A stretch of 64,000 nt of DNA from Vairimorpha necatrix (GCA_036630325.1 CP142731.1:682001-746000), one strand, 5' to 3'. Positions 16,135-44,072 are shown, counted from the stretch's first letter. Numbers and translations: made by a program. The notes: generated by a model from the sequence alone, not told the origin.

Positions 16135-16166
<32 letters not shown>

Positions 16167-16601: not shown

Positions 16602-16643
<42 letters not shown>

Positions 16644-16870: not shown

Positions 16871-16929
16871 TTTGTATGTATAGTAGGTGTTGTGTTGTAT
16901 TGAGAGCGTACTTTATGTCTAGATTTGGT

Positions 16930-17185
16930 ACCCTTACAAGAGAGCGTCCACGTCGCGGAGAGTGGGACCGATGTTTTTTAACTACCCTCTACAAGAGAGC
17001 GTCCACGTCGCAGAGGGCGGGACCGATGTTTTTTAACTAGGTGCAGATCTCTAAGTCTTACCAACCTTCGGCTGCTGGTTGGTAAGTAGGGCCAGCTATA
17101 CTCTAGGGGTGGGAGACCCATTGCTGGTGAGAAGGACACCGTTAACTTTCGAGTAATTCTTCATATTTTTAACCTGGGAGAGGTT
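16930..17185 (+). mobile_element. Two 3'-truncated ribozyme-SINE units (16930-16983 and 16984-17185)
   Basis: Both start ACCCT...ACAAGAGAGCGTCCACGTCGC like the full-length unit; the first stops at TTTTTTAACT, the second at ACCTGGGAGAGGTT. Confidence 0.85.
16984..17052 (+). ncRNA. HDV-like ribozyme fold (copy with a compensatory U-A pair in P1)
   Basis: P1 ACCCUCU/AGAGGGC, P2 AGAGA/UCUCU, P3 GCG/CGC, L3 UCCACGU, P1.1 CC/GG, P4 ACC/GGU, J4/2 G-C-A-G-A. Confidence 0.82.
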
Positions 17186-17255
17186 ACCCTCCACAAGGGA
17201 GCGTCCGCGTCGCGGAGGGTGGGACCGATGTTTTTTTAACTAGGTGCAGATCTCT
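17186..17255 (+). ncRNA. HDV-like ribozyme fold
   Basis: P1 ACCCUCC/GGAGGGU, P2 AGGGA/UCUCU (G.U wobble), P3 GCG/CGC, L3 UCCGCGU, predicted catalytic C at 17247. Confidence 0.87.
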
Positions 17256-17664
17256 AAGTCTTACCAACCTTCGGCTGCTGGTTGGTAAGTAGGGTCAGCT
17301 ATACTCTAGGGTTGTAGACCCATTGCTGGTGAGAAGAACGCCTTTAACTTTCGAGTAATTCTTCATATTTTTAACCTGGGAGAGGTTGGGCATGATACTG
17401 AAGCTGTATTGTTCCGCTGAACTGAGTCGTGTTCTTAAATGGTGTATTGAACCAGGCGTTGTGTTTTCGTCAGGTCCGCGAAATATGTAGTCAGAGATGA
17501 CTAAGGATCTGTTACCTATAGGAACAAATTTTTCTCCTACAAGCGAGGCCGTTGAGGTATGCTGGCGTGTAATCGCAATTATTGATGTTTTTCTGGTTGG
17601 TGGAGTTTTTGGTGGCTTGGTGGCTTTTCTTCGTTTTGCTGATTCTGTCTTTTTTACAATAAAC
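17186..17664 (+). mobile_element. Full-length ribozyme-headed non-autonomous retroelement (~0.5 kb); its T-rich tail continues at 24748-24776 after the Merlin insertion
   Basis: Ribozyme, then a 10-bp hairpin CTTACCAACC/GGTTGGTAAG, then a ~300-nt segment shared with the LINE A 3'UTR (from ACCTGGGAGAGG to TTTACAATAAAC). No meaningful ORF. Confidence 0.85.
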
Positions 17665-17863
17665 GGTTAAGTTCTCGACTTACCCCCCCCCCCCCCACCC
17701 CTAAAAAAAATAAAAAAAGGGGAAAAAATAAAAAAAAATAAAAAAAAATAAAAAAAGGGGAAAAAATAAAAAAAAATAAAAAAAGGGGAAAAAATAAAAA
17801 AAAATAAAAAAACGTTTAATTCTCGACTTAACCCCCCTTACCCCCCAAAAAAAACAAAAAAAA

Positions 17864-18553
17864 TTATTCCACAATTGTAAAGTCTATTTCAGGAATAATA
17901 TCATAAGCTACAATACTAAAATTACCTATTTGAAAAAATTCTAACATTTTATCCAATAGATTTTCACGATATATTAATTTGAATCTGTTAATGTAAATCT
18001 TTCTTACAAGATTCATAATAGTACCATGACTAGTTCCTCCTTTTCTTAGTTCTCTTTTAATAACCGACCACATTCCCTCTATAGTCTGAGTATGCGCACC
18101 AGTTATATTATCAACAAAATTTTGGCTGTGATTCACAGTCAAATGTAGATACTCATATTCTACACAGATTGTTTGAATATCACAATATCCACGCCAACAA
18201 TCTGTCACAATTGTGGTCCCCGGAGCAATTTTTCTTGTAATTAATTCAACAAGAGTAGCTCTTGTTCTATTTTCTACGATCTCAAAGAAAAAAGAATTTG
18301 CATCCCCTCTCACAACGCCTCCAACTGCCCATACTTGATATTGAAGAACCCTTCCCGCATGGTTTTTACTTTTTACAAGTAAAGTTTCATCAATTTCAAC
18401 AATACAACCGACGCCGCCAATCGTTTGATTGTTTATATATGTTGAATAAGAGACGTACACGGCGTTATTAAAACGCGTAAACCATCTTGATACCGTACAT
18501 TTACCTATATCAAGTTCTAACGTGGCGGCCAAATTACTTGAACCCTTTACCCA
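17864..18553 (-). pseudogene. Merlin transposase, C-terminal part (DDE)
   Basis: VEIDET, WAVGGV, IVTDCWRGY, HLTVNHSQNFVD...HTQTIEGMWS. Confidence 0.92.
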
Positions 18554-20227
18554 ATGAAGGGTAAAGCAAGAGAAAGCAGGAGCGAGCTCAGTAGAGCAAA
18601 AAGTGACCACTTTGGTGGTCCAAACAACAATTTAGATATAGAAATGTATTTAAAACAACAAACTAAGCATGTATATGCTAATAAAAGTTTCCCAAGTGTT
18701 ACTTTCAAAAATGATGGAGAAATGAAATATTTTCTCAAGAAAATAAAAATTCTCTCGGAAAGAATTAATAAAAATGATATTTTTGACACATCAAAAAAAG
18801 AAAACAATAAAGATCTTAGTGATCTTAAAAGATACATAGCTAGCACTACTGAATTATTACTGATTCAGCAGACATATCTGGAGCTCTTCCATGACAAGCT
18901 AGAAAAACAAAATATCAAATTAAAAAATTTGATTAAAAATAATCTGATGGATGACAGTAATCAATTTACAGAATCAACAAAAAATAAAATTGAGATGATG
19001 ATTGAGAATCACTCAAAAGAATGTGTAGAACAAAAGGATAATAACTCCGATGTTCCAAATGATACCAGTAGCGAAACCCTTCAGTTAGCTACTGGAAACA
19101 ATGATATTTCTAAATTAGAAATCATAAATGAAGATGTTTTAATTAATGTCAAAAATATCGTGTCTGCTGTCAAAGTAGAAGAAGAAGATCGATTGTCAGA
19201 TGATGGCAAAAGAAAATGTATAGGTGTCTCAAATGCGTCTACAAATATTATAATTAATAAAAATATTAAAACAAAAGATGTTAAGCTAGACTTAGCTTTC
19301 ATTAATAAAAAAGCAGTAGTTAGACATCTGTCAACTATCTCTGCTATTATAGCTGGTAAAAGAAAAGCTCCTAAGAATGGAGTCAAGCTTTTCCATATAA
19401 ACGAAGACGGATGGACATCTGTCAAACACACATTCAAGCCTAAAGTCCAGATAGACTTGAAGAAAAACAGAAGTGGTAAAACCACAGATAAAACCAACTT
19501 TAATAGATTTAAATCACTTAAAGTAGAAACTAGTGGCAATGTAAAAGTGCCCAAAAAGATTAATCATGAAGCTGTAAAGAGAAAGAATATCATTCCTAAA
19601 AAAGATCATGAAAAGGAAAGATTACAAAATCAGAGAATAAATTTTACAAAAAAAACGAAGGACAGAAAAAATGAGAAATGTCAACAAAAAAGAGTTCCAG
19701 TTTTACCAAAGAAAAACTGGGCCAAAGAGCTATCTGAAGAAGCTCTTATGAAAATTATTAAGGATGGTAGAATTATTTCCAAGTGTAAGTTTAGGATAGC
19801 TCTTGTGTCTGGACTCGGATTGAAAGGGAAACCTCAATCTAGAGACGCTTGGGCAGCCTTAGCTGATGTGGAAAATAAAGATATACCACTTATAAAACAA
19901 TTTAAAGATTCGGAAGTAGTACTTCTGATGATTAGAGAACACGTGGGCCAAAAGGTACTAAGCAAAATTAAAGAAAAGTTCGGAGGTTCTAATATCTGCG
20001 ATGAAGTTAATTTCTTCACCGACTTTATGTCTTTAACAAAAACAACTGTTCTAGGAGAGCTGCAAAGACTCTCTGGAACGCATAAAAATTTTGTACCGCT
20101 TGTAAAAGCATGTTGGTACATAACTAAAGAATTAAATAAAGAAAACCCAAACCATGGTTCTTTCATTATTTTAGAAAATATGATGGGTGAGCCTGCCCGA
20201 GAATCTAAGGACTTTAACAATGAATAA
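18554..20227 (+). CDS. LINE A ORF1 (Lys/Asn-rich, coiled-coil-like N-terminus, no recognisable domain); start uncertain
   Basis: 557-aa ORF directly upstream of, and overlapping, the ORF2 start; conserved in copy 2. Confidence 0.8.
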   Translation: MKGKARESRSELSRAKSDHFGGPNNNLDIEMYLKQQTKHVYANKSFPSVTFKNDGEMKYFLKKIKILSERINKNDIFDTSKKENNKDLSDLKRYIASTTELLLIQQTYLELFHDKLEKQNIKLKNLIKNNLMDDSNQFTESTKNKIEMMIENHSKECVEQKDNNSDVPNDTSSETLQLATGNNDISKLEIINEDVLINVKNIVSAVKVEEEDRLSDDGKRKCIGVSNASTNIIINKNIKTKDVKLDLAFINKKAVVRHLSTISAIIAGKRKAPKNGVKLFHINEDGWTSVKHTFKPKVQIDLKKNRSGKTTDKTNFNRFKSLKVETSGNVKVPKKINHEAVKRKNIIPKKDHEKERLQNQRINFTKKTKDRKNEKCQQKRVPVLPKKNWAKELSEEALMKIIKDGRIISKCKFRIALVSGLGLKGKPQSRDAWAALADVENKDIPLIKQFKDSEVVLLMIREHVGQKVLSKIKEKFGGSNICDEVNFFTDFMSLTKTTVLGELQRLSGTHKNFVPLVKACWYITKELNKENPNHGSFIILENMMGEPARESKDFNNE

Positions 20228-23200
20228 AGTATCTTTGTTAAAGTCCTGTTATTATAGGAAATTATTTTCCTATAACAAGAGTGATATTTTCAAATCTCTA
20301 AATAAAAAAACGCATAATCCAATTGGATTTACTCAGATTAAAAATACTTTCCAAACGACAACGAGATTGAATAGTCTCAAATATTTTTCTATTAGAAAGA
20401 ATATGTGGTGGAAGAAAGTACAAGAACAATATTGTATTGTCAAGATACAAAGAATTCCTTATGGAGTGAAAGATCTCCTCAAAGACTTATGTAAGAAGAA
20501 CTCTCTTTTGGAGAATTCCATCATTACAGCAAGAAAGTATAGACGAAGAGACACGTCTTTTACAAAAATAATAGTTGAAAAACTATACGCAAATTTATTG
20601 ATTAAGACAGTTAAAGCTAAAGGCTTTAAAGTTTTAAATGATAATAGAAAAGAACTAGAGAAATCTAGTAAAGTAAATAAAAAGACCAAAGAGAACATAA
20701 AACTCTTAAGTCTAAACATTAATCATCTCTCTAATAAGAGAGAAGAACTTGAGTTTCTTCTTAAGAAGGAGAAACCAGAAATTATGTGTTTACAAGAAAC
20801 TTGGAGACAATCTACAAGACCTTTAAAACTTGAAAAATACACTACAGTTGAAACACCTAGTGGTGGAAAAAATAAACCAGGATTAATAACTCTGGTTAGA
20901 AATAATGGAGCGATCAGATGTTCCAAAAAAGGAACCGACTCAAACATTCTGCAAACTGTAGTTGAGTTTAGTTCAGCAGGCAAATGGATTAAGTATTTAG
21001 TCTTAAATGTCTACATACCACAAAACAAGGATCTCAAAAGGGAGACCTTGGCTAGATTATTTTCTCTTTTAGAAAAAGAGAATTTCAGAAATAACTATAG
21101 TGAGATCATAGTGATGGGAGATATGAATATGCAGAGTTCTAGTCTCAAGAAAAAATTAAATGTAGTTGGTTTGCCAGTTACAATAAAATATAACAGCAAC
21201 GATGGTACAAGGATCCTCAAAGATGGTAAAAGATCTAAGAGGAAAATTGATACCATCTTTCGACTAAAAAGTAATGATAATGAGAAGATCATTATATCCA
21301 AGTCTTGGGTATTAAGTGATCACTTAGTGCTCAAAAGAAGTATTAAACTTGCCGTTGATAAGATCTCCGATCAACTAGTTTATGATAAGAAAATGCTGGA
21401 AAATCCAAAAGTGATTAAAAAGCTAAAAAAGAAGTTGTGTAATCAACAATTAAACATGAATAATCTCCCCGAGATTATTCAGAAAGTTTGTACATCTTTG
21501 AAGATTTACAAAAAGAGAAGAGTCCATACTGGACTTACAATGAGATGGAGATATTTAAAAGTCTTCAAAGAAAAACGTCTAGCAGCAAGAGCTGTTATGA
21601 AAAATTACAATGAAATCAACTCAATTAGATTCGAATATCTCAAAAAGAGAGTAGACGAAACTAAAAAGTTGATTCGCAAAGATAGATCGAAACTTTGGGC
21701 TTTAAGAGGAATAAAGCTCTTTAAAAGTAACAGATCCCGAGAATTCTGGCAATGGCTGAAAAATAGAAGTGTTTCCATTCGTTTGGATCAAGTGGCTCTA
21801 ATTGACCACAATAAGCTTCTTCAGACTTGCCGAGCAAAGAAGCTAGAAATAGCAAATAATTTTTACGCTGATTTGGCGTCAGAGAATGATATAGATGTCA
21901 ATGTCTATGATAAAGTAGATCTTGTTGATCTTCCCCCAGAGATAACAGATGAAGAATTTCTATCCGCACTGAAGAAATGTGGAAATAACAAAGCTGCCGG
22001 TCCTGATGAGATTCCAACCGAGCTATACAAATACTTACTGACTAGAGCAGTAGAAGATAAATTCTTTAAATTCATGCTACATGAATTTAATAAATATATT
22101 TGTGGAAATAGTACTCCTGAATATTGGAGCATGGCAAACATGATTTGCCTTCACAAAAAAGGAGATGAGACAGATCTGAATAATTATAGGGGAATCTCCT
22201 TAATTAACACAATTAGTAAGATCTATCTCAAGATAATAAATGACAGGTTAACTCAATTTGTCGAAGAACAAGATATACTCTCTAGATACCAAGCAGGATT
22301 CCGAGCAGGTGAAGAGTGTATGAATCAGATTACATCTCTACTAGAAATAGTGAGAAGAAGAGAATTCAGAGGCTTGAACACAATAATGTGTTTCATTGAC
22401 TTTGAAAAAGCTTATGATAATGTAAGTCATGACTTATTATTTGAAAAGCTTACAAAACTTAATATCCCATTGTATTTAATCAATACAATAAAGGATATTT
22501 ATAAATATACCACCATGCGTGTGAAAATTGGTGGTGACACGTCAAGTGGTTATAGCTACAGAAAAGGAGTGAGACAAGGGTGCCCTTGTTCTCCAATGCT
22601 GTTCAATATATTCATCAATGATATTTTTGACGGCATAGAAGGAGTTTTGATCCCAAGATCAAATACGAGAGTTCCGGGACTGATGTTCGCAGATGATATT
22701 GTTGTCTTCGGAAACAACATTGATGATCTTAATAATAAGATCAATAGAATTTCAAAGTGGGCAGTTAATAACAGAATGAAGATTAACTGCACAAAAAGCG
22801 GAGTATTAGAATGGAATGCTCATTCTAACATACAAGAATTCCGAAGTTTATATTCTCTCAGTACAGACTTTGGTGTGATTGAAGAAGTCACTGAATACAG
22901 ATATCTAGGTGTCTTAATTAAAAGAAACACGCTAGAAGAACACTTGGTTAAAGACGCAGCAATGCGTGGCAAGAAAGCCTTGGACGCCTTGATGCCCAAG
23001 TTGATGAATAGCAGCATCAATCTCTACTTCAAGGCGATCTTAATAAAATGTGTACTAGTACCCACACTAATGTATGGCAGTGAATTGTGGGGAATGTCAA
23101 GTACAAGAGCAGGTAAGATTAACAGGATCTTAAGAAAATCTATCAGAATGATATTCAAAAGAGTATTAGTTCCACTAGATAGAGTAATGGACGAGTTCAG

Positions 23201-23912
23201 TATCGAACGAATTCATATACAAGCAGCTTTGAGTAGATTCAGAGCATACAACAAGTGGAAACACAATAAGACAATCATATCGGATATAATCTCAATTAAT
23301 CCGAAAGAAAGAAAAACTACCTGGTGTTCAAGAACACAAAGATGGTTAAAACGATTTGTTGGCAACGAATACGAATCAAGTGATAGTAGATTTATCACTA
23401 CAAAAATAATTGATGTACTAAGAAGTCGAAGAACTCTAAATACTTCTTTAGCTGCATCAATAGCAAACCAATATGACATAAGAAATTCACAAATAAAATA
23501 TGTCATGAACAAAATAAACAATAGAAAAATTAGAACATATACTAGATTGAGATGTAATCTAGTAAAGTGGTCCTCAGCAATAGCATATTCAAAAAGAATA
23601 CCAATGAGTTATAGAAACAAATGCTTTTTGTGTGATGGACCACAAGAAAATTTAGAACACTTTCTGTTGGAGTGCGTCTGTTTTACTGACATTAGAACAT
23701 CTTTTGAAAATAAACTGCCTCTACTGACTTGTTCAAAAACAAATATCCGAGAAAAAACCAAACAACTCCTTGGTAATAAAATCGGACTAAAAAATAACCC
23801 AGATAAGATAAAAGAACTTTGTTGGACTATAGAGTTCTTAGATAGAATGGTTGTCTCTAGAAGAATTATATTTGAAAAGAAACTTAAAGAGATAACAAAA
23901 CAGGATAATTAA
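20220..23912 (+). CDS. LINE A ORF2: AP endonuclease + reverse transcriptase + C-terminal CCHC (RTE/RTEX/L2-group-like; clade inferred)
   Basis: LSLNIN, CLQET, GDMN, SDH (APE); NYRGISL, FIDFEKAYD, GVRQGCPCSP, FADD, YRYLGV, YGSELWG; CFLC...HFLLEC. ATG at 20220 overlaps the ORF1 stop (ATGAATAA). Confidence 0.95.
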   Translation: MNKVSLLKSCYYRKLFSYNKSDIFKSLNKKTHNPIGFTQIKNTFQTTTRLNSLKYFSIRKNMWWKKVQEQYCIVKIQRIPYGVKDLLKDLCKKNSLLENSIITARKYRRRDTSFTKIIVEKLYANLLIKTVKAKGFKVLNDNRKELEKSSKVNKKTKENIKLLSLNINHLSNKREELEFLLKKEKPEIMCLQETWRQSTRPLKLEKYTTVETPSGGKNKPGLITLVRNNGAIRCSKKGTDSNILQTVVEFSSAGKWIKYLVLNVYIPQNKDLKRETLARLFSLLEKENFRNNYSEIIVMGDMNMQSSSLKKKLNVVGLPVTIKYNSNDGTRILKDGKRSKRKIDTIFRLKSNDNEKIIISKSWVLSDHLVLKRSIKLAVDKISDQLVYDKKMLENPKVIKKLKKKLCNQQLNMNNLPEIIQKVCTSLKIYKKRRVHTGLTMRWRYLKVFKEKRLAARAVMKNYNEINSIRFEYLKKRVDETKKLIRKDRSKLWALRGIKLFKSNRSREFWQWLKNRSVSIRLDQVALIDHNKLLQTCRAKKLEIANNFYADLASENDIDVNVYDKVDLVDLPPEITDEEFLSALKKCGNNKAAGPDEIPTELYKYLLTRAVEDKFFKFMLHEFNKYICGNSTPEYWSMANMICLHKKGDETDLNNYRGISLINTISKIYLKIINDRLTQFVEEQDILSRYQAGFRAGEECMNQITSLLEIVRRREFRGLNTIMCFIDFEKAYDNVSHDLLFEKLTKLNIPLYLINTIKDIYKYTTMRVKIGGDTSSGYSYRKGVRQGCPCSPMLFNIFINDIFDGIEGVLIPRSNTRVPGLMFADDIVVFGNNIDDLNNKINRISKWAVNNRMKINCTKSGVLEWNAHSNIQEFRSLYSLSTDFGVIEEVTEYRYLGVLIKRNTLEEHLVKDAAMRGKKALDALMPKLMNSSINLYFKAILIKCVLVPTLMYGSELWGMSSTRAGKINRILRKSIRMIFKRVLVPLDRVMDEFSIERIHIQAALSRFRAYNKWKHNKTIISDIISINPKERKTTWCSRTQRWLKRFVGNEYESSDSRFITTKIIDVLRSRRTLNTSLAASIANQYDIRNSQIKYVMNKINNRKIRTYTRLRCNLVKWSSAIAYSKRIPMSYRNKCFLCDGPQENLEHFLLECVCFTDIRTSFENKLPLLTCSKTNIREKTKQLLGNKIGLKNNPDKIKELCWTIEFLDRMVVSRRIIFEKKLKEITKQDN

Positions 23913-24324
23913 TATGAATAATTAAAAACAATAAAATCTAGAAATGGAAGAAAGAGATGTTATTTTACTAACAAGAAAACTTATATTTAATTATATTTGA
24001 CCTGGGAGAGGTCGGGCATGATACTGATGCTGTATTGTTCCGCTGAACTGAGTCGTGTTCTTAAATGGTGTATTGAGCCAGGCGTTTTCGTTTTTCATCA
24101 GACTCATGAAAGTGGGTCTCTAGTCATATTATGACTAAGGATGTATCCTATGGGAACAAACTTTTCTCCTACAAGCGAGGCCGTTAAGGTATGCTGGCGT
24201 GTAAACGCACTTATTGATGATTTTTTCTTTATTAGTGGAGTTTTTGGTGGCTTGGAGGCTTTTCTTCGTTTTGCTGATTCTGTCTTTTTTTTACAATAAA
24301 CAATTTTATTTTTTTTTTTTTTTT

Positions 24325-24601
24325 TTGAACCCTTTACCCATTCGCAAAGCAATATTAAAAGATCCTCAATAGGCAATTTTGAGTTCTTAAAAACGCTTTG
24401 TTTCATTATGGTTCCTTTGTTAGAACATTTTTTACCATCACGCCTTGAATAACAACGATAGTTTTCAGTGTTGGTCCGATTTTGAGTCATTGGTATATTG
24501 CATTTATTGCACATAGGGACCCTCAAAATGTTTTTTGCAATTAAAAATTGCATTAACTCATTTTTTTTATAGATGAGTTTTCTAAATTCTTTAATTCTCA
24601 T
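24325..24601 (-). pseudogene. Merlin transposase, N-terminal part (Zn ribbon)
   Basis: CNKC...YRC...C, SVFKNSKLP, ends at WVKGS, which is duplicated as the TSD; joins 17864-18537 in frame to give 316 aa. Confidence 0.9.
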
Positions 24602-24776
24602 TATGGGTCAAATTTTTTATTTCTTTTATTTTTTCCCCTTTTTTTATTTTTTCCCCTTTTTTTTATTTTTCCCCCCTTTTTTATTTTTTTTTATTTTTTT
24701 TAGGGGTGGGGGGGGGGGGGGTAAGTCGAGAACTTAACCCAATAAACAATTTTATTTTTTTTTTTTATTTTATTTT

Positions 24777-25610
24777 AGTAGGGTCAGCTATACTCTAGGG
24801 GTGGGAGACCCATTGCTGGTGAGAAGGACACCGTTAACTTTCGAGTAATTCTTCATATTTTTAACCTGGGAGAGGTTGGGCATGATACTGAAGCTGTATT
24901 GTTCCGCTGAACTGAGTCGTGTTCTTAAATGGTGTATTGAACCAGGCGTTGTGTTTTCGTCAGGTCCGCGAAATATGTAGTCAGAGATGACTAAGGATCT
25001 GTTACCTACGGGAACAAATTTTTCTCCTACAAGCGAGGCCGTTGAGGTATGCTGGCGTGTAATCGCAATTATTGATGTTTTTCTGGTTGGTGGAGTTTTT
25101 GGTGGCTTGGTGGCTTTTCTTCGTTTTGCTGATTCTGTTTTTTTACAATAAACAATTTTATTTTTTATTTAGGTGCAGATCTCTAAGTCTTACCAACCTT
25201 TGGCTGCTGGTTGGTAAGTAGGGTCAGCTATACTCTAGGGGTGGGAGACCCATTGCTGGTGAGAAGGACACCGTTAACTTTCGAGTAATTCTTCATATTT
25301 TTAACCTGGGAGAGGTTGGGCATGATTCTGAAGCTGTATTGTTCCGCTGAACTGAATCGTGTTCTTAAATGGTGTATTGAACCAGGCGTTGTGTTTTCGT
25401 CAGGTCCGCGAAATATGTAGTCAGAGATGACTAAGGATCTGTTACCTACGGGAACAAATTTTTCTCCTACAAGCGAGGACGTTGAGGTATGCTGGCGTGT
25501 AATCGCAATTATTGATGTTTTTCTGGTTGGTGGAGTTTTTGGTGGCTTGGTGGCTTTTCTTCGTTTTGCTGATTCTGTCTTTTTTTACAATAAACAATTT
25601 TAAATTTTTT
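24777..25610 (+). mobile_element. Two 5'-truncated ribozyme-SINE units in tandem (24777-25170, 25171-25610)
   Basis: Near-identical to the unit at 17186-17664 minus its 5' end; each ends in AATAAAC plus a T-rich tail. Confidence 0.9.
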
Positions 25611-25709
25611 AATGCAGTTGGAACAGTCGGGATTTAGAAAATGTACACGACAACAATTAATTTATTTAATGAAATTAAATGCGTATAGCAATAAGCAGAT
25701 AATAATCAT

Positions 25710-27422
25710 GTGTTGAAACAATCTTACGACCGAAAACAAGCGCAACAAACCAGGAGCAAGCTCAGTAGAGCAAAAAGTGACCACTTTGGTGGTCCAAACA
25801 ACAATTTAGATACAGAAATGTATTTAAAACAACAAACTAAGCATGTATATGCTAATAAAAGTTTCCCAAGTGTTACTTTCAAAAATGATGGAGAAATGAA
25901 ATATTTTCTCAAGAAAATCAAAATTCTCTCAGAAAGAATTAATAAAAACGACATTTTTGACACGTCAAAAAAAGAAAATAACAAAGATCTTCTTGATATT
26001 AAAAGATACATATCTAGCACTACTGAATTAGTATTGATTCAGCAGACATATTTGGAGCTCTTCCATGATAAGCTAGAAAAACAAAATATCAAATTAAAAA
26101 ATTTGAAAAAAAATAATCTGATGGATGACAGTAATCAAATTACAGAATCAACAAAAAATAAAATTGAGATGATGATAGAGAATCACTCAAAAGAATGTGT
26201 AGAACAAAAGGATAATAACTCCGATGTTCCAAATGATACCAGTAGCGAAACCCTTCAGTTAGCTACTGGAAACAATGATATTTCTAAATTAGAAATCATC
26301 AATGAAGATGTTTTAATTAATGTCAAAAATCTCCCATCTGCTGTCATAAATCTCGTCACTGCTGTCAAAGTAGAAGAACAAGATAAATTGTCAGAAGATG
26401 GCAAAAGAAAATGTATAGATGTTTCAAAGGCATCTACAGATATTATAATTAATAAAAATATTAAACCAAAAGATGGTAAGCTAGATATAGCTTCCATTAA
26501 CAAAAAAGCAGTAGTTAGACATCTGTCAACTATCTCTGCTATTATAGCTGGTAAAAGAAAAGCTCCTAAGAATGGAGTCAAGCTTTTCCATATAAACGAA
26601 GACGGATGGACATCTGTCAAACACACATTCAAGCCTAAAGTCCAGATAGACTTGAAGAAAAACAGAAGTGGTAAAACCACAGATAAAACCAACTTTAATA
26701 GATTTAAATCACTTAAAGTAGAAACTGGTGGCAATGTAAAAGTGCCTAAAAAGATTAATCATGAAGCTGTAAAGAGAAAAGATATCATTCCTAAAAGAGA
26801 TCATGAAAAAAGAAGATTACTAAATCAGAAAATAAATTTTACAAAAAAAACGAAGGACAGAAAAAATGAGAAATGTCAACAAAAAAGAAGGCCAGTTTTA
26901 CCAAAGAAAAACTGGGCCAAAGAGCTAACTGAAGAAGCTCTTATGAAAATTATAAAGGATGGTAGAATTATTTCCAAATGTAAGTTTAGGCTAGCTCTTG
27001 CTTCTGGACTCGGATTGAAAGGGAAACCTCAATCTAGAGACGCTTGGGCAGCCTTAGCTGATGTGGAAAATAAAGATATACCACTTATAAAACAATTTAA
27101 AGACTCGGAAGTAGTACTTCTGATGATTAGAGAACACGTGTGCCAAAAGGTACTAAGCAAGATTAAAGAAAAGTTCGGAGGTTCTAATATCTGCGATGAA
27201 GTTAATTTCTTCATCGACTTTTTGTCTTTAACAAAAACAACTGTTCTAGGAGAGCTGCAAAGACTCTCTGGAACGCATAAAAATTTTGTACCGCTTGTAA
27301 AAGCATGTTGGTACATAACTAAAGAATTAAATAAAGAAAAGCCAAACCATGGTTCTTTCATTTATTTAGAAAATATGATGGGTGAGCCTGCCCGAGAATC
27401 TAAGGACTTTAACAATGAATAA
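25710..27422 (+). CDS. LINE A ORF1 (open frame from GTG; first ATG at 25818)
   Basis: Closely similar to 18554-20227. Confidence 0.78.
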   Translation: MLKQSYDRKQAQQTRSKLSRAKSDHFGGPNNNLDTEMYLKQQTKHVYANKSFPSVTFKNDGEMKYFLKKIKILSERINKNDIFDTSKKENNKDLLDIKRYISSTTELVLIQQTYLELFHDKLEKQNIKLKNLKKNNLMDDSNQITESTKNKIEMMIENHSKECVEQKDNNSDVPNDTSSETLQLATGNNDISKLEIINEDVLINVKNLPSAVINLVTAVKVEEQDKLSEDGKRKCIDVSKASTDIIINKNIKPKDGKLDIASINKKAVVRHLSTISAIIAGKRKAPKNGVKLFHINEDGWTSVKHTFKPKVQIDLKKNRSGKTTDKTNFNRFKSLKVETGGNVKVPKKINHEAVKRKDIIPKRDHEKRRLLNQKINFTKKTKDRKNEKCQQKRRPVLPKKNWAKELTEEALMKIIKDGRIISKCKFRLALASGLGLKGKPQSRDAWAALADVENKDIPLIKQFKDSEVVLLMIREHVCQKVLSKIKEKFGGSNICDEVNFFIDFLSLTKTTVLGELQRLSGTHKNFVPLVKACWYITKELNKEKPNHGSFIYLENMMGEPARESKDFNNE

Positions 27423-34500: not shown

Positions 34501-34769
34501 ACTGAGTCGTGTTCTTAAATGGTGTATTGAGCCAGGCGTTTTCGTTTTTCATCAGACCCATGAAAGTGGGTCTCTAGTCATATTATGACTAAGGATGTAT
34601 CCTATGGGAACAAACTTTTCTCCTACAAGCGAGGCCGTTAAGGTATGCTGGCGTGTAAACGCAATTATTGATGATTTTCTGGTTGGTGGAGTTTTTGGTG
34701 GCTTGGTGGCTTTTCTTCGTTTTGCTGATTCTGTCTTTTTACAATAAACATTTTTATTTTTATTTATTT
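31534..34769 (+). mobile_element. LINE family A, copy 3, 5'-truncated inside the endonuclease (ORF 31563-34364)
   Basis: Starts at ATTTCAGAAATAAC directly after the copy 2 tail; RT and CCHC intact; T-rich tail. Confidence 0.93.
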
Positions 34770-37700
34770 TTTAACAAAAACAACTGTTCTAGGAGAACTA
34801 CAAAGACTCTCTCGAACGCATAAAAACTTTGTACCACTTGTTAAAGCATGTTGGTACATAACTAAAGAATTAAATAAAGAAAAGCCAAACCATGGTTCTT
34901 TCATTTATTTAGAAAATATGATGGGTGAGCCTGCCCGAGAATCTAAGGACTTTAACAATGAATAAAGTATCTTTGTTAAAGTCCTGTTATTATAGGAAAC
35001 TATTTTCTTATAAAAGAAAATCTATTTTTAAATCTTTAAAACAAAAATGCATAATCCAATTGGTTATAACAAATTAAAAAATACTTTCAAAACGCCAAGG
35101 AGACTGAATAGTCTCAAATATTTTTCTATTAGAAAGAATATGTGGTGGAAGAAAGTACAAGAACAATATTGTATTGTCAAGATACAAAGAATTCCTTATG
35201 GAGTGAAAGATCTTCTCAAAGACTTATGTAAGAAGAACTTTCCTTTGGAGAATTCCATCATTACAGCAAGAAAGTATAGACGAAGAGACACTTCTTTTAC
35301 AAAAATAATAGTTGAAAAACTATAAGCAAATTTATTGATTAAGACAGATAAAGCTAAAGGCTTTAAAGTTTTAAATGATAATAGAAAAGAACTAGAGAAA
35401 TCTAGTAAAGCAAATAAAAAGACCAAAGAGAACATAAAACTCTTAAGTCTAAACATTAATCATCTCTCTAATAAGAGAGAAGAACTTGAGTTTCTTCTTA
35501 AGAAGGAGAAACCAGAAATTATGTGTTTACAAGAAACTTGGAGACAATCTACAAGACCTTTAAAACTTGAAAAATACACTACAGTTGAAACACCTAGTGG
35601 TGGAAAAAATAAACCAGGATTAATAACTCTGGTTAGAAATAATGGAGCGATTAGATGTTCCAAAAAGGCACCGACTCAAATATTCTGCAAACTGTAGTTG
35701 AGTTTAGTTCCGCAGGCAAATGGATTAAGTATTTAGTCTTAAATGTCTACATACCACAAGACAAGGATCTCAAGAGAGAAGTCTTGGCCAGATTACTTTC
35801 TCTTTTAGAAAAAGAGAATTTCAGAAATAACTATAGTGAGATCATAGTGATGGGAGATATGAATATGCAGAGTTCTAGTCTCAAGAAAAAATTAAATGTA
35901 GTTGGTTTGCCAGTTACAATAAAATATAACAGCAAAGATGGTACAAGGATTCTCAAAGATGGTAAAAGATCTAAGAGGAAAATTGATACCATCTTTCGAC
36001 TAAAAATTAATGATAATGAGAAGATCGTCATTCTAAAGTCTTGGGTATTAAGTGACCACTTAGTGCTCAAAAGAAATATTAAACTTGCCGTTGATAAGAT
36101 CTCAGATCAACTAGTTTATGATAAGAAGATGCTGGAAAATGCAAAAGTGATTAAAAAGCTAAAAAGGAAGTTGAGTAATCAACAATTAAACATGATTAAT
36201 CTTCCTGAGATTATTCAAAAAGTTCGCACATCTTTGAAGATTTACAAAAAGAGAAGAGTCCATACTCGACTTACAATGAGATGGAGATATTTAAAAGTCT
36301 TCAAAGAAAAACGTCTATCAGCAAGAACTGTTATGAAAAATTACAATGAAATCAACTCAATTAGATTCGAATATCTCAAAAAGAGAGTTGACGAAATAAA
36401 AAGTTGATTCGCAAAGATAGATCGAAACTTTGGGCTTTACGAGGAATAAAGCTCTTTAAAAGCAATAGATCCCGAGAATTCTGGCAATGGCTGAAAAATA
36501 GAAGTGTTTCCATTCGTTTGAATCAAGTGGCTCTAATCGACCACAATAAGCTTCTTCAGACTTGCCGAGCAAAGAAGCTAGAAATAGCGAATAAATTTTA
36601 CGCCGAATTAGCGTCAGAGAATGATATAGATGTCAATGTCTATGATAAAGAAGATTTTGTTGATCATCCCTCAGAGATAACAGATGAAGAATTTCTATCC
36701 GCACTATAGAAATGCGTAAATAACAAAGCTTCCGGTCCTGATGAGATTCCAACCGAGCTATACAAACACTTACTGACTAGAGCAGTAATAGATAAATTCT
36801 TTAAATTCATGCTAAATGAATTTAATAAATATATTTGTGGAAATAGTCCTCCTGGATACTGGAGCATGGCAAACATGATTTGCCTTCACAAAAAAGGAGA
36901 TGAGACAGATCTGAATAATTATAGGGAGATCTCCTTAATTAACACAATTAGTAAGATCTATCTCAAGATAATAAATGACAGATTAACTCAATTTGTCGAA
37001 GAACAAGATATACTCTCTAGATACCAAGCAGGATTCCGAGCAGGTGAAGAGTGTATGAATCAGATTACATCTCTATTAGAAATAGTGAGAAGAAGAGAAT
37101 TCAGAGCCTTGAACACAATAATGTGTTTCATTGACTTTGAAAAAGCTTATGATAATGTAAGTCACGACTTATTTTTTGAAAAGCTTGCAAAACATAATAT
37201 CCCATTGTATTTAATCATTTCAATAAAGGATATTTATAAATATACCACCATGCGTGTAAAAAATTGGTGGTGACACGTCAAGTGGCTATAGCTACAGAAA
37301 AGGAGTGAGACAAGGGTGCCCTTGTTCTACAATGCTGTTCAATTTATTCATCAATGATATTTTTGACGGCATAGATGGAGTTTTGATCCCAAGGTCAAAT
37401 AAGAGAGTTCCGGGACTGATGTTCGCAGATGATATTGTTGTCTTCGGAAACAACATTGATGATCTTAATAATAAGATCAATAGAATTTCTAATTGGGCAG
37501 TTAATAACAGAATGAAGATTAACTGCTCAAAAAGCGGAGTATTAGAATGGGCTGCTCATTCTAACATACAAGAATTCCGAAGTTTGTATTCTCTCAGTAC
37601 AGACTTTGGTGTGATTGAGGAAGTTACTGAATACAGATATCTAGGTGTCTTAATTAAAAGAAACACGCTAGAAGAACACTTGGTCAAAGACGCAGCAATG

Positions 37701-39056
37701 CGTGGCAAGAAAGCCTTAGACGCCTCGATGCCCAAGTTGATGAATAGCAGCATCAATCTCTACTTCAAGGCGATCTTAATGAAATGTGTACTAGTACCCA
37801 CACTAATGTATGGCAGTGAATTGTGGGGAATGTCAAGTACAAGAGCAGGTAAGATTAACAGGATCTTAAGAAAATCTATCAGAATGATATTCAAAAGAGT
37901 ATTAGTTCCACTAGATAGAGTAATGGACGAGTTCAGTATCGAACGAATTCATATACAAGCAGCTCTAAGTAGATTTAGAGCATACAACAAGTGGAAACAC
38001 AATAAGACAATCATATCGGATATAATCTCAATCAATCCGAAAGAAAGAAAAACTACCTGGTGTTCAAGAACACAAAGATGGTTAAAACGATTTGTTGGCA
38101 ACGAATATGAATTAAGTGATAGTAGATTTATCACTACAAAAATAATTGATGTACTAAGAAGTCGAAGAACTTTAAATACTTCTTTAGCTGCATCAATAGC
38201 AAACCAATATGACATAAAAAATTCACAAATAAAATATGTCATGAACAAAATAAATAATAGAAAAATTAGAACATATACTAGATTGAGATGTAATCTAGTA
38301 AAGTGGTCCTCAGCAATAACCAATTCAAAAAGAATATCTATGAGTTATAGAAATAAATGCTTTTTGTGTGATGGACCACAAGAAAATTTAGAACACTTTC
38401 TGCTAGAGTGCGTCTGTTTAACTGACATTAGAACATCTTTTGAAAATAAACTGCCTCTACTGACTTGTTCAAAAACAAATAACCAAGAAAAAACCAAATT
38501 ACTTCTTGGTAATAAAATCGGATTAAGAAACAACCCAGATAAGATAAAAGAACTTTGTTGGACTATAGAGTTCTTAGATAGAATGGTTGTCTCTAGAAGA
38601 ATTATATTTGAAAAGAAACTTAAGGAGATAACGAAACAAGGTAATTAATATGAATAATTAAAAAAATGAAGATCTAGAAATAGAAGAAAGAGACGTTGAT
38701 TTATTAACAAGAAGACTTATATTTAATTATATTTGACCTGGGAGAGGTCGGGCATGATACTGATGCTGTATTGTTCCGCTGAACTGAGTCGTGTTCTTAA
38801 ATGGTGTATTGAGCCAGGGGTTTTCGTTTTTCATTAGACCCATGAAAGTGGGTCTCTAGTCATATTATGACTAAGGATGTGTCCTATGGGAACAAACTTT
38901 TCTCCTACAAGCGAGGCCGTTAAGGTATGCTGGCGTGTAAGCGCACTTATTGATGATTTTTTTCTTTATTAGTGGAGTTTTTGGTGGCTTGGAGGCTTTT
39001 CTTCGTTTTGCTGATTCTGTCTTTTTTTACAATAAACAATTTTATTTTATTTTTTT
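34770..39056 (+). mobile_element. LINE family A, copy 4, 5'-truncated in ORF1, ORF2 broken by stops and frameshifts
   Basis: ORF2 fragments at 35047, 35335, 35655, 36404, 36809 and 37305; shared 3'UTR and tail. Confidence 0.93.
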
Positions 39057-42000: not shown

Positions 42001-42438
42001 TTCCATGGTGGTCTACTGGGGCTAGTCAGTACATAAAAAAAATAAATAGCATGTCGATGGTGTTGCAAGCACTGTTGCGCATACTCCTGGGAGAGGAGGC
42101 TGGAAGTGATGAACTCGTATGTCTATATACGAATTTCGGAAACTCTGCGATTATCGAGCAATCTAGTACTGACTCTTTTGTAGTACCGGCTGCGAGATTT
42201 CTGCAGAGAATTATTCCTCTAAGGGAAGGTATTATCCGCAGGATAATATCTGTTGACCGAAGAGTCTCCTGGAGCCAAAGCTCAATGAGTACGGCGGAGC
42301 TTGTTGCACCATAGTCTAAGAGGGTGGGGTTTTAGTGAGTTCGAGTCTCACAGTATCAACCAATCTTTCAGTCTCACTGATTGATGTTGTTCTGCGCGGG
42401 CATTTCCCCATCCTTTGACACAAAAAAAAAAAAAAAAA
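39057..42438 (+). mobile_element. LINE family B, 5'-truncated, GC-richer, ending in A17
   Basis: Single ORF, ~110-nt 3'UTR, poly(A) at 42422-42438. Confidence 0.9.
39066..42314 (+). CDS. LINE B ORF2 (partial APE + RT + CCHC), N-terminally truncated
   Basis: SVYIP, GDFN, IDHI, SDH; FIDYAKAYD, GVRQGCPVSP, FADD, YVYLGI, YGAEVWG; CPFC...HLFFYC. Confidence 0.92.
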   Translation: MALAVKRDSGLSLTYYAQHDWLLAGSIEGTFEMHKTPIQILAVSVYIPCRGEANRQVAKQCLTAFLREKASRPTWTRVVIGGDFNMNEGELAVLLSQSKSGIEVLPNPLMKTRWSWTTNWSSIDHIAAKGFRERPFVWPIQHYDISDHFPVYVKIKFEKTFIPERKSIISRAKVKDVRPIFVADEKWNAVTEKTDSNLSTLAKAFIDSVWEVANGCNVTSKPHPKEWRVYISKETRTLIAKRRNVFKHRKDPDFDRTVYDKLMMRVQKSKKKDACEARTRKTHAIAKMVVENRYKDLFLEIRSSTGDGVSDKPVLDESTGSVIHDKKGKEELWARYFGDLASDKTGHSRDPNFWIDKFPIKHNVYPECNSPLYYEELWGALKSTPWGKAPGLDGIPADVLKVIAMEEEPVSAAAKALWKTVSSIWNKAEIPNEINVGEVVPIPKKTMSVVTMSDTRGIVLLPSLTKVIAKIAARRINCIAEEHGLLAKEQAGFRTLEECTAQVASLYEVVKRRSIRGQPTYLAFIDYAKAYDKVPHKALLRKLECIGIGGHLLDVIRSLYKDPRMCVRVGSSTSPIVNYHCGVRQGCPVSPILFDLFINDLLLGMEGVTIPGVDSTISGLLFADDAVILAESESALRRNLKILSSWSEKHEMSVNASKCGIMAISTTEQIEAGGPESILLNKKAKREPNEPESFEIMGNEVPIITEYVYLGIRFTPDLCLNSMMKHCESKGKKAFGAMYYLLSRKDMPVFVKTLALKVKLQAILTYGAEVWGMSTARCKGIQRIMNAACRIIVGGGKNASMDRIRSELGVKSVANIAAVKRARAVAKWPGCKTWISTLSNSHFRSREWTWVSGNIKWLKRYAGWEIGRALTTTIIDDVFASREVESRTKIGTWAAEYRLSTKPVWIKLGSLYPELQRGCLGIGRMRSGTFNFVRNLVNKRILGNQYRSFCPFCNNSDEETIEHLFFYCQRWEEYRGHYFPWWSTGASQYIKKINSMSMVLQALLRILLGEEAGSDELVCLYTNFGNSAIIEQSSTDSFVVPAARFLQRIIPLREGIIRRIISVDRRVSWSQSSMSTAELVAP

Positions 42439-43385
42439 TGTGTTTTCGTCAGGTCCGCGAAATATGTAGTTAGAGATGACTAAGGATCTGTTACCTACGG
42501 GAACAAATTTTTCTCCTACAAGCGAGGCCGTTGAGGTATGCTGGCGTGTAATCGCAATTATTGATGTTTTTCTGGTTGGTGGAGTTTTTGGTGGCTTGGT
42601 GGCTTTTCTTCGTTTTGCTGATTCTGTCTTTTTTACAATAAACAATTTTATTTATTTTTTATTAGGTGCAGATCTCTAAGTCTTACCAACCTTCGGCTGT
42701 TGGTTGGTAAGTAGGGTCAGCTATACTCTAGGGGTGGGAGACCCATTGCTGGTGAGAAGAACGCCGTTAACTTTCGAGTAATTCTTCATATTTTTAACCT
42801 GGGAGAGGTTGGGCATGATACTGAAGCTGTATTGTTCCGCTGAACTGAGTCGTGTTCTTAAATGGTGTATTGAACCAGGCGTTGTGTTTTCGTCAGGTCC
42901 GCGAAATATGTAGTCAGAGATGACTAAGGATCTGTTACCTACGGGAACAAATTTTTCTCCTACAAGCGAGGCCGTCAAGGTATGCTGGCGTGTAAACGCA
43001 ATTATTGATGTTTTTCTGGTTGGTGGAGTTTTTGGTGGCTTGGTGGCTTTTCTTCGTTTTGCTGATTCTGTCTTTTTACAATAAACAATTTTTTTTTTAT
43101 TTTTTTTATTGCTGGTGAGAAGGACACCGTTAACTTTCGAGTAATTCTTCATATTTTTAACCTGGGAGAGGACCCCCCACAAGAGAGCGTCCACGTCGCG
43201 GAGGGTGGGACCGATGTTTTTTAACTAGGTGCAGATCTCTAAGTCTTACCAACCTTCGGCTGCTGGTTGGTAAGTAGGGTCAGCTATACTCTAGGGGTGG
43301 GAGACCCATTGCTGGTGAGAAGGACACCGTTAACTTTCGAGTAATTCTTCATATTTTTAACCTGGGAGAAATTGGGCATGATACT
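42439..43385 (+). mobile_element. Four partial ribozyme-SINE units (42439-42663, 42664-43107, 43108-43171, 43172-43385)
   Basis: Each matches part of 17186-17664; junctions fall at T-rich tails or at ACCTGGGAGAGG. Confidence 0.88.
43172..43240 (+). ncRNA. HDV-like ribozyme fold with one C.A mismatch in P1
   Basis: ACCCCCC/GGAGGGU; all other elements match the consensus. Confidence 0.75.
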
Positions 43386-43439
43386 TGTGGTATTATAAAT
43401 ACCACAAATTATTTATTTTTATTTATTTTTATTTTTCCC

Positions 43440-43508
43440 ACCCTCCACAAGAGAGCGTCCACGTCGCGGAGGGTGGGACCGATGTTTTTTAACTAGGTGC
43501 AGATCTCT
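43440..43508 (+). ncRNA. HDV-like ribozyme fold (consensus copy)
   Basis: ACCCUCC-ACA-AGAGA-GCG-UCCACGU-CGC-GGAGGGU-GG-G-ACC...GGU-G-CAGA-UCUCU; predicted catalytic C at 43500. Confidence 0.88.
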
Positions 43509-44072
43509 AAGTCTTACCAACCTTCGGCTGCTGGTTGGTAAGTAGGGTCAGCTATACTCTAGGGGTAGGAGACCCATTGCTGGTGAGAAGAACACCGTAA
43601 ACTTTCGAGTAATTCTTCATATTTTTAACCTGGGAGAGGTTGGGCATGATACTGATGCTGCATTTGTTCCGCTGAACTGAGTCGTGTTCTTAAATGGTGT
43701 ATTGAGCCAGGCGATGTCGTTTCACACACACCACCTCTGGTGGGTCTAGTCATCGTTGACTAGAATTTGTTGTCCCATGGGAACGAGTTTTTCTCCTACA
43801 AGCGAGGCCGTAAAGGTATGCTGGCGTCAAAGCGCGATTATTGATGATTTTTTCTTTGCAGTGGAGTTTTTTGTGGCTTGGTGGCTTTTCTTCGTTTTTG
43901 CTGATTTTTCCTATCATTCTGTATTGCCTATATCTGTTTTTTTTTATTTTAATGTATTTTTCCTTACGCGGACTTGATTTTTATTTTATATGGAACTTAT
44001 TATGATGAGTTAGGAACGTTTGTTTTGATGCTGAATGTCTTTTTTACAATAAACATTTTATTTTATTTATAA
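43440..44072 (+). mobile_element. Full-length ribozyme-SINE, divergent and longer 3' variant
   Basis: Same 5' ~200 nt; diverged shared tail with ~130 extra nt before TGTCTTTTTTACAATAAAC and the T-rich tail. Confidence 0.82.

Follow-up and report, generated by a model that had tools for sequence, protein, structure and literature searches.

A probable short retroelement with an HDV-like ribozyme head and a LINE tail downstream of an rRNA gene in Vairimorpha necatrix

A short, apparently non-coding repeat beside an rRNA gene of Vairimorpha necatrix, a Nosema/Vairimorpha-group microsporidian, raises the question of what kind of element it is and how its constant 5' end is set. The locus was examined in a window of 64 kb, the whole stretch of DNA that was analysed (GCA_036630325.1 CP142731.1:682001-746000), and the coordinates obtained are given in Table 1. 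We conclude, at a probability of roughly 0.6, that the repeat is a SIDE/SINE-like non-autonomous non-LTR retroelement, with an HDV-like ribozyme that cuts it free from read-through transcripts.

The short element is 0.5–0.6 kb long and consists of its own ~180-nt head and a ~290-nt tail in common with an APE-type LINE, LINE A. Heads were found at 16930, 16984, 17186, 43172 and 43440, and all five start with the same A (position 1), confirming the coordinates and common first base in an earlier note on this DNA. The same note had described all five as 5'-complete copies; those at 17186 and 43440 are the only complete elements, the head at 16930 being a 54-nt fragment and those at 16984 and 43172 head units. 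The T-rich tail of the 17186 element continues at 24748-24776, beyond a DNA transposon insertion. An AT-rich 54-nt spacer (43386-43439) separates the 43172 head unit from the 43440 element, in which the head runs to ~43620 and is followed by the LINE-type tail, the terminal ACAATAAAC and the T-rich end. The tail of this copy includes a stretch of ~130 nt (43907-44035) without counterpart in any other copy. The two complete elements represent two subfamilies that are 95% identical in the head and 81% identical in the tail. The longest stop-to-stop frames were 123 aa in the 17186 copy and 76 aa in the 43440 copy, so that no long frame is common to both. Copies of the short element that are 5'-truncated start at 24777, 25161, 42439, 42655 and 43108.

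Table 1. Features of the rRNA gene, short-element and LINE A locus, in window coordinates.
Feature	Coordinates	Strand	Remarks
LSU rRNA gene	14467..16875	+	covariance model, heads excluded
Head fragment, element positions 1-54	16930..16983	+	degraded P1 (one C lost, G33A); lacks J4/2 and P2 3' strand
Head unit, 202 nt, positions 1-202	16984..17185	+	ribozyme motif 16984-17052; relaxed descriptor match
Complete element, subfamily a	17186..17664	+	ribozyme motif 17186-17255, putative catalytic C 17247; strict match
Merlin-type DNA transposon	17665..24739	-	terminal inverted repeats of ~35 nt; remnant of an IS1595-type DDE transposase
LINE A copy 1	18553..24326	+	ORF1 18554-20227, ORF2 20220-23912, tail 23992-24316
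Short element, 5'-truncated, from position ~102	24777..25153	+	
Short element, 5'-truncated, from position ~55	25161..25595	+	
LINE A copy 2	25612..31540 (start approximate)	+	ORF1 25818-27422, ORF2 27415-31107, tail 31189-31525
LINE A, two 5'-truncated copies (31534-34773; 34770-39056)	31534..39056	+	each ends in common tail
Two 5'-truncated short elements, 42439-42654 (from ~275) and 42655-43086 (from ~55)	42439..43086	+	
Head fragment, positions 137-200, abutting next head	43108..43171	+	
Head unit, 214 nt, positions 1-214	43172..43385	+	ribozyme motif 43172-43240
Complete element, subfamily b	43440..44072	+	motif 43440-43508, putative catalytic C 43500; strict match

Comparison of the short element with LINE A confirmed the common 3' tail proposed earlier. 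Against the 3' UTRs of all LINE A copies, element positions ~181-467 showed 82-89% identity. The final ~30 nt and the T-rich end were nearly identical between the two, with conservation of the terminal ACAATAAAC. LINE A contains two ORFs with APE and RT domains. A 13-bp target-site duplication flanks copy 1 (18540-18552 and 24327-24339), and its sequence, GAACCCTTTACCC, is present only twice in the window; judged from this duplication LINE A is demonstrably mobile. Copy 2 alone among the LINE A copies extends further in the 5' direction, and no head-like or HDV-like motif was found at its 5' end. Assignment of LINE A to the R2 clade was rejected on the basis of its two ORFs, its APE-type endonuclease and its position beyond the 3' end of the LSU. 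The Merlin-type transposon, which split the tail of the 17186 element, has a transposase remnant matching DDE_Tnp_IS1595 with an E value of 2.5e-13, and LINE A copy 1 lies inside this transposon.

The first 69 nt of the head correspond to an HDV/CPEB3-type double pseudoknot, with P1 formed by positions 1-7/29-35, P2 by 11-15/65-69, P3 by 16-18/26-28, P1.1 by 20-21/36-37 and P4 by 39-41/57-59. L3 comprises positions 19-25 and J4/2 positions 60-64, with C61 at the catalytic position (43500 and 17247). All 20 pairs are formed in the copies at 17186 and 43440, where the earlier hand-drawn fold with its catalytic C proved exact, and 19 of the 20 in those at 16984 and 43172. J4/2 reads GCAGA in each of the four heads that reach it, so that C61 precedes an A, as is conserved in HDV-like ribozymes. 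L3 is UCCACGU (UCCGCGU in the 17186 copy) and P1.1 results from pairing of its two C's with the GG that follows P1. The U and G of the reverse-wobble pair, which are conserved in L3 of HDV-like ribozymes (PMC3774820), are retained in the element heads. The pair at the predicted cleavage site is A1-U35 (A.C in the 16984 copy) in place of the G.U wobble of HDV and CPEB3, which was rated typical rather than defining because the active L1Tc ribozyme cleaves before C1 (PMC3185411). P2 has only 5 bp and P4 consists of 3+3 bp around a U-rich loop; a weak or missing P4 has a precedent in active R2 ribozymes (PMC3774820). The unconstrained MFE and centroid folds of 43440-43510 were exactly P1+P3+P4, P2 and P1.1 being pairings that the folding tools cannot score.

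The occurrence of the motif was examined using a descriptor that was composed after the motif had been seen. The strict form gave two matches in 128 kb, at 17186 and 43440 and nowhere else, both at element position 1; the relaxed form, with one P1 mismatch, added 16984 and 43172. Outside the elements the relaxed form matched three times (1746, 8016, 61947) against ~8.5 expected from shuffles, and the strict form matched 13 times in 30 shuffled 64-kb strands, equivalent to ~0.4 per strand or 6.8e-6 per position. The fold exceeds chance by its position, rather than by its occurrence alone. A search of Rfam aligned 43445-43469 with model positions 17-42 of 78 of the CPEB3_ribozyme (RF00622), with 21/26 identities across the J1/2-P2-P3-L3 core. 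The score was 13.8 bits against a threshold of 35, with E = 0.18 for 4227 families and 101 nt, or roughly 4e-5 by our own arithmetic for one pre-named family. The same partial match was obtained at 43177-43201, giving two of the five heads; no CPEB3 match at E<=10 was obtained for the three heads in 16500-17700, nor any other HDV-type family at E<=10 in 16500-17700 or 43000-44100. Membership of the mammalian CPEB3 family was rejected, the score being far below the gathering threshold.

The LSU rRNA model scored 244.2 bits when ending at 16875, compared to 243.4 bits when the alignment was forced through the heads to 17020. Positions 16876-16929 are a unique 54-nt LSU 3' flank, and the whole of 16700-16929 is unique in the window. 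The first short-element copy therefore lies outside the LSU rRNA gene and begins 0-54 nt past its 3' end, on the gene's own strand. That the first copies lie directly downstream of this gene in the same orientation had been overlooked previously. In other microsporidia LINEs have been reported specifically beside the 3' ends of rRNA operons (PMC12449221).

The junctions at A1 were of two kinds. Two of the five heads are preceded by non-element DNA, the rDNA 3' flank and the AT-rich spacer, and the other three by an internal position of another copy, position 54, 202 or 200 being joined directly to position 1. The five heads thus have one 5' end in four differing upstream contexts; the earlier description of the upstream sequence as largely different needs qualifying for the three heads that follow internal copy positions, two of their upstream sequences being the same. 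Junctions of 54, 202 and 200 to 1 would be expected if reverse transcription proceeded to the very end of an RNA that starts with A1 and then switched to another template, and such template jumps have been described for R2 (PMC3414825). All element copies lie in one 27-kb nest of the window in the same orientation. No target-site duplication of the short element was visible among these copies at a single locus, as they are inserted in one another's T-rich tails.

These observations suggest the following cycle. The element, without Pol III features of its own, would be transcribed within a longer transcript, which for the copies in 16930-17664 could be one that runs on past the end of the LSU rRNA gene, 0-54 nt before them and in the same orientation. 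The HDV/CPEB3-type ribozyme in the first 69 nt would cut 5' of A1, making the element's first base the 5' end of its RNA. The LINE A ORF2 protein may then recognise in trans the common 3' end of the short-element RNA, which would be carried to new sites by target-primed reverse transcription. The lack of tRNA, 5S and 7SL matches at E<=10 in 16500-17700 and 43000-44100 agrees with an absence of Pol III-type features, the earlier note having seen no tRNA-type A/B box. A T6 run at head positions 46-51, which would stop Pol III, also counts against Pol III transcription. Every part of the earlier interpretation that could be tested on the sequence held, and its functional steps, namely self-cleavage, read-through transcription, absence of a promoter and mobilisation by LINE A, are ones that we infer.

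A1 could also be a transcription start that is fixed by a promoter within the conserved 180-nt head, with the HDV-like fold inactive or secondary to this promoter, in the manner of the dual promoter/ribozyme Pr77 of L1Tc. The entire head, positions 1-180 and not only 1-69, is 95% conserved between the subfamilies; positions 70-186 are modestly structured (fold-energy z -2.15), and a conserved structured region spans 70-180. Conservation of the ribozyme part does not exceed that of the remaining head, with 7 variable columns in 69 (positions 1-69) against 11 in 133 (positions 70-202). The ribozyme is present in only four near-identical copies with one compensatory pair. On the side of the ribozyme, the seven columns comprise two in that pair (C7-G29 to U7-A29), one that keeps a wobble, two in loops and two mismatches. 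The 16984 copy has an A1.C35 mismatch together with the compensatory U7-A29 pair, and the 43172 copy a C5.A31 mismatch, so that both mismatch columns occur in partial copies. The nested fold energy of the ribozyme is likewise ordinary (z -0.23), 69 of 200 shuffles folding equally well or better. The conservation and structure of the whole head and the ordinary fold energy would suit a promoter, but it would leave unexplained the complete set of HDV-type constraints in the first 69 nt and the CPEB3 core alignment, and the T6 run argues against Pol III; this origin of A1 is considered unlikely.

Position 54/55 is a recurring breakpoint, where the 16930 fragment ends and the copies at 25161 and 42655 begin, and it is not explained by the ribozyme model. 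It would be accommodated if positions 1-54 were native rDNA 3' external spacer, a hairpin with a T-run terminator, in which an element starting near position 55 had landed. Processing of read-through transcripts by the machinery that forms rRNA 3' ends would then have given a composite that spread, and the HDV match would be coincidental. Copy 1 is exactly 54 nt long and is separated from the LSU by 0-54 nt; J4/2 and the P2 3' strand fall outside positions 1-54, and the probability of meeting them by chance within 120 nt is estimated at roughly 5%; and rRNA-derived SINEs such as SINE28 have been described. However, copy 1 itself has a degraded hairpin, which is unexpected for a functional spacer signal, and the CPEB3-like core and P1.1 within positions 1-37 are not accounted for. 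The heads at 43172 and 43440 moreover end at A1 with no LSU or spacer sequence upstream, and a single dimer may be the source of the copies at 25161 and 42655; a spacer origin is considered very unlikely. Local amplification of an rDNA-flanking repeat that unequal recombination and segmental duplication assembled from LINE tails, with no mobile short element, is the least probable explanation: all 26 element and LINE BLAST segments are on the + strand within 27 kb, head units are in tandem, the pairs at 24777-25595 and 42439-43086 look duplicated and no short-element duplication is visible, but random unequal exchange does not predict three junctions beginning exactly at position 1 from end points 54, 200 and 202, the copies are 5'-truncated at differing points with complete 3' ends as in target-primed reverse transcription, the tails of the two subfamilies are only 81% identical and LINE A is mobile according to its target-site duplication.

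When the ribozyme-released element was compared with known systems, the closest analogue appeared to be the R2/R1 hybrid SIDEs of Drosophila, a very close published parallel that the earlier note had not mentioned. As described in PMC3414825, these are short and non-coding with a 5' HDV-like ribozyme fused to the 3' UTR of a ribozyme-less APE-type LINE, are rDNA-associated and presumed to be cut from an rRNA co-transcript, and are interspersed with their LINE partner in head-to-tail arrays. The same source derives their ribozymes clearly from a resident R2, while no R2-like donor was seen in the window; it places them at the R1 site inside 28S with a 14-bp duplication, while the present element lies downstream of the LSU; and it reports cleavage in vitro, while that of the present element is predicted from its sequence. 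At least one LINE A insertion, in addition, is at a site outside rDNA, and the present element belongs to a microsporidian. R2 and R2 SIDEs resemble the element as proposed here in a 5' HDV-like ribozyme that sets where the element RNA begins within a Pol I co-transcript, and in template jumps with variable 5' junctions, but R2 has a single ORF, a restriction-like endonuclease and one 28S site, compared to the two ORFs, APE and position outside the rRNA gene of LINE A. L1Tc and NARTc of Trypanosoma cruzi also combine an APE-type LINE with a non-autonomous partner; both carry the ribozyme, which also serves as a promoter (PMC3185411, PMC3383444, PMC4035085), whereas in the window only the short element has a ribozyme motif. 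In the partner an active HDV-like ribozyme takes up the first ~77 nt and cuts at +1, where the base is not G (PMC3185411). The mammalian CPEB3 ribozyme (RF00622) has the 21/26 core identity and a P1 register that puts the cleavage site at A1; it differs in its P1, P2 and P4 sequences and in lying in an intron rather than a retroelement. The microsporidian LINEs at rRNA operon tails resemble the present locus in their position by operon 3' ends, and the available part of PMC12449221 reports LINE co-location only, with no short element or ribozyme described.

A ribozyme-headed SINE with a LINE tail is a known parasitic strategy that is apparently unreported in microsporidia; a literature search found no description of a microsporidian system of this kind, in line with the earlier note. 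A further reading, quite improbable at present, makes the element a parasite specialised on the rDNA tail, or a module domesticated there, which would lie just downstream of the LSU at many dispersed rDNA loci of this genome and be transcribed by Pol I read-through. Its self-cleavage would both free the element RNA and make the cut that ends the pre-rRNA. If this were true, it would represent an R2-like lifestyle that spares the rRNA gene, and possibly a case in which a ribozyme helps to form the 3' ends of Pol I transcripts or to terminate them.

The short element, a non-coding repeat of about 0.5–0.6 kb, carries an HDV-like ribozyme motif at its 5′ end and a tail resembling that of LINE A, the neighbouring APE-type LINE, and is best read as a SIDE-like retroelement (probability roughly 0.6). 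An earlier note had mapped the ribozyme fold by hand, and this mapping was exact when checked pair by pair across the heads, the 5′ parts of the element starting at 16930, 16984, 17186, 43172 and 43440. P1 is formed by positions 1–7 and 29–35, J1/2 is ACA, P2 is formed by 11–15 and 65–69, and P3 by GCG/CGC. L3 is UCCACGU, P1.1 pairs C20 and C21 with G37 and G36, P4 comprises 39–41 and 57–59 plus an inner GUU/AAC, and J4/2 is GCAGA with C61 as the putative catalytic cytosine. All 20 of the 20 pairs are formed in each complete copy (17186 and 43440); in the former, A13 is changed to G with retention of a G·U pair, and there is a loop change in L3. The 16984 head has an A1·C35 mismatch and a compensatory change of C7-G29 to U7-A29, the 43172 head has one mismatch (C5·A31), and P1 is broken in the 54-nt fragment at 16930. 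Passages of PMC3774820 list the U and G of L3, the catalytic C and the following A as conserved in HDV-like ribozymes, all of which are present here, and describe active R2 ribozymes that have no P4. The minimum free energy and centroid folds of 43440–43510 were exactly P1+P3+P4, with a nested fold energy that was ordinary compared with shuffled sequences (z −0.23). Positions 1–69 were not better conserved than positions 70–202, with 7 and 11 variable columns respectively. The whole evidence base consists of four near-identical ribozyme copies at one 27-kb locus.

The frequency of the fold was examined using a descriptor of our own design, written after the motif had been seen. Over 128 kb the strict descriptor matched only at 17186 and 43440, while allowing one P1 mismatch added 16984 and 43172 together with three unrelated sites at 1746, 8016 and 61947. 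In thirty dinucleotide shuffles of the window the strict form matched at 13 start sites and the relaxed form at 127, or ~0.4 and ~4.2 per 64-kb strand, so that a match somewhere is unremarkable and the three unrelated sites are noise. What would be improbable is a match that falls on the very first base of a repeat whose start was defined independently (6.8e-6 per position). The Rfam CPEB3_ribozyme family aligned to 43445–43469 over model positions 17–42 with 21 of 26 identical, spanning the end of P1, J1/2, the 5′ strand of P2, P3, L3 and the start of the 3′ strand of P1, and the same match was obtained at 43177–43201. The score of 13.8 bits falls short of the threshold of 35, with an E-value of 0.18 for 4227 families and 101 nt, which by our own arithmetic becomes ~4e-5 for one family named beforehand; this partial alignment adds sequence-level support for a putative HDV-type ribozyme. 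The CPEB3_ribozyme match was not reported for the three heads in 16500–17700, no HDV-type family reached threshold in the window, and the gathering scan contained no ribozyme family. A scan of the metagenome collection with the P3-L3-P1′-P1.1 core and a scan of viral contigs each gave 0 matches. The sole metagenome match to the J1/2-P2-P3-L3 core (L001) was on a contig of 58–68% GC with no P1 complement and was rejected as chance.

The head of the element (~1–180) is absent elsewhere in the window, and its tail (~181–467) matches every LINE A 3′ UTR with 82–89% identity. In all copies a T-rich repeat comes after the terminal ...CTTTTTTACAATAAAC. The two complete copies represent two subfamilies, with 95% identity in the head and 81% in the tail. 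Outside the ribozyme motif, head positions 70–186 (43509–43625 in one copy) are ~95% conserved between the subfamilies. Their fold has three hairpins, one of them with a 10-bp stem, and its stability (z −2.15) was matched by 3 of 200 shuffles. A 123-aa stop-to-stop open frame at 17186–17680 is absent from the 43440 copy, where the longest is 76 aa. Short elements have complete 3′ ends and varied 5′ truncations, starting at ~55, ~55, ~102, 137 and ~275. All 26 BLAST segments of the short element and LINE are on the + strand, and the LINE A and short-element pieces are arranged head to tail, mostly within the T-rich tail of the preceding piece, which suggests that the tail repeat is a preferred target or that cDNA was synthesised from multiple templates. 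No target-site duplication of short elements was readable at the nest copies, because these sit in each other's T-rich tails. The pairs 24777–25595 and 42439–43086 resemble a dimeric element that inserted twice and was truncated each time. Two heads are separated by a 54-nt AT-rich spacer (43386–43439) that begins with the palindrome TGTGGTATTATAAATACCACA (43386–43406) and finishes with T-rich repeats and CCC, and this spacer may be the alternative 3′ end of a mini-element containing only head positions 1–214.

Coordinates of the rRNA genes, mobile elements and tRNA gene in the window
Feature	Position	Strand	Remarks
SSU rRNA	13105–14351		Rfam scan
LSU rRNA	from 14467		Rfam scan
Complete short element	17186–17664	+	
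Merlin-type DNA transposon	17665–24739	-	~35-nt terminal inverted repeats (GGTTAAGTTCTCGACTTACCCC...)
LINE A copy	18553–24326	+	
LINE A copy	~25612–31540	+	
LINE A, 5′-truncated	31534–34773	+	
LINE A, 5′-truncated	34770–39056	+	
LINE B	39162–42438		unrelated to LINE A
Complete short element	43440–44072	+	
tRNA gene	44643–44713	-	66.8 bits; immediately past the nest

LINE A contains two ORFs, and ORF2 carries Exo_endo_phos (AP-type endonuclease, E 1.9e-5) and RVT_1 (E 7.5e-39) domains and a weak zf-RVT match. For a LINE fragment, the closest named protein match was annotated in Vairimorpha necatrix (93% identical across 14% of the query), which places the organism in the Nosema/Vairimorpha group. 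The sequence GAACCCTTTACCC brackets LINE A copy 1 at 18540–18552 and 24327–24339, its only two occurrences in the window, and is a 13-bp target-site duplication such as APE-type target-primed reverse transcription typically leaves. A ribozyme was looked for at the 5′ end of LINE A and none was found. The Merlin-type transposon interrupts the tail of the 17186 element and is itself disrupted by LINE A copy 1; it retains a remnant of an IS1595-type DDE transposase at 17864–18538 (DDE_Tnp_IS1595, E 2.5e-13) and internal poly-C and A-rich repeats. It is flanked on both sides by CAATAAAC, likely an 8-bp duplication. LINE B has a partial APE domain, RT and zf-RVT in a 1050-aa ORF, shows no nucleotide similarity to LINE A, and ends in a 17-nt poly(A) (42422–42438), whereas LINE A ends are T-rich.

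The retroelement nest (16930–44072) lies directly downstream of the one microsporidian rDNA unit in the window. In the first Rfam scan the LSU match reached 17020, overrunning two heads with a terminal alignment full of mismatched pairs. With the heads excluded the LSU model ended at 16875 and scored 244.2 bits, compared to 243.4 through the heads. The heads are therefore not rRNA, and a location inside the LSU was rejected for them on the poor alignment through the heads and the slightly higher score of the match ending at 16875. The first head lies 54 nt from the modelled LSU end, on the same strand and with no long T-run between. The LSU terminus is ambiguous: ...AGAUUUGGU / ...UCUAGAUUUGGU at 16929 resembles the terminal consensus of the model, and a true terminus at this ...AGAUUUGGU would reduce the distance to 0 nt. 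Exact abutment of the first head copy on the mature LSU terminus was not supported by the LSU model run that excluded the heads.

The first base is the same A in all five heads. The sequence before them is the unique rDNA 3′ flank at 16930 and the AT-rich spacer at 43440, and the element itself upstream of 16984 (after position 54), 17186 (after 202) and 43172 (after 200). The earlier claim of different upstream sequence thus holds for four contexts, but three of these are the element itself. Duplications that always restart at position 1 from different internal points fit template jumping at the end of an RNA beginning at A1, the predicted cleavage site, and are not the pattern expected of random unequal exchange. 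As a SIDE-like retroelement, the short element would be transcribed within a longer RNA (by Pol I read-through for rDNA-proximal copies) and would self-cleave 5′ of A1. The LINE A ORF2 protein would then recognise the shared 3′ end and reverse transcribe the RNA where the target is nicked, and template jumps now and then would produce the stacked heads. We infer these transcription, self-cleavage and mobilisation steps from the anatomy observed on the sequence. A T6 run at positions 46–51 argues against Pol III, and Rfam found no similarity to tRNA, 5S or 7SL in the head regions. Alternatively, the 5′ end could be set by a promoter within the conserved head, a situation like that of L1Tc, whose transcription start and cleavage sites coincide. 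Positions 1–54 could also have originated as native rDNA 3′ spacer that was picked up through read-through. The recurrent breakpoint at position 54/55 (the rDNA-proximal fragment end at 16983/16984 and the truncated-copy starts at 25161 and 42655) would then be accounted for, but neither the degraded hairpin of copy 1 nor the CPEB3-like core in positions 1–37 would be. A third, less likely reading invokes local recombination alone.

Among published systems the nearest is the R2/R1 hybrid SIDE of Drosophila, described in passages of PMC3414825 as joining an HDV-like ribozyme to the 3′ UTR of R1, an APE-type LINE. That element lies in rDNA, occurs among R1 copies in tandem arrays and has been shown to cleave in vitro (PMC3414825, same passages). 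L1Tc/NARTc is the other close case. Passages of a review, PMC6765202, report HDV-like or hammerhead ribozymes in LINEs and SINEs of diverse metazoans, those of PMC12449221 place LINEs of other microsporidia specifically at rRNA operon tails and make no mention of ribozymes, and those of PMC10759460 give 18–20 dispersed rDNA loci per haplotype in V. necatrix. No on-topic report of an HDV-like ribozyme in microsporidia or Nosema was found in the literature searched, which was covered mostly by title and start of abstract and in which subscription papers are under-represented; likewise, none was among the matches listed for microsporidian SINEs and LINEs or for HDV-like ribozymes of fungal retrotransposons. 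We rate the element as of a known kind, new in its lineage and in its position relative to the rRNA gene.

Microsporidia are a fungal-related group with highly reduced RNA-processing machinery. Should the ribozyme prove active, no self-cleaving ribozyme and no ribozyme-processed retroelement would have been reported earlier in this group, going by the literature searched. The strategy of travelling in host transcripts and self-excising, which is known in animals and trypanosomatids, would then reach a fungal-related lineage, and the element would be a second, independent case of a ribozyme joined to the tail of an APE-type LINE without one of its own. Activity would also offer a mechanism behind the published finding that LINEs lie at microsporidian rRNA operon tails.
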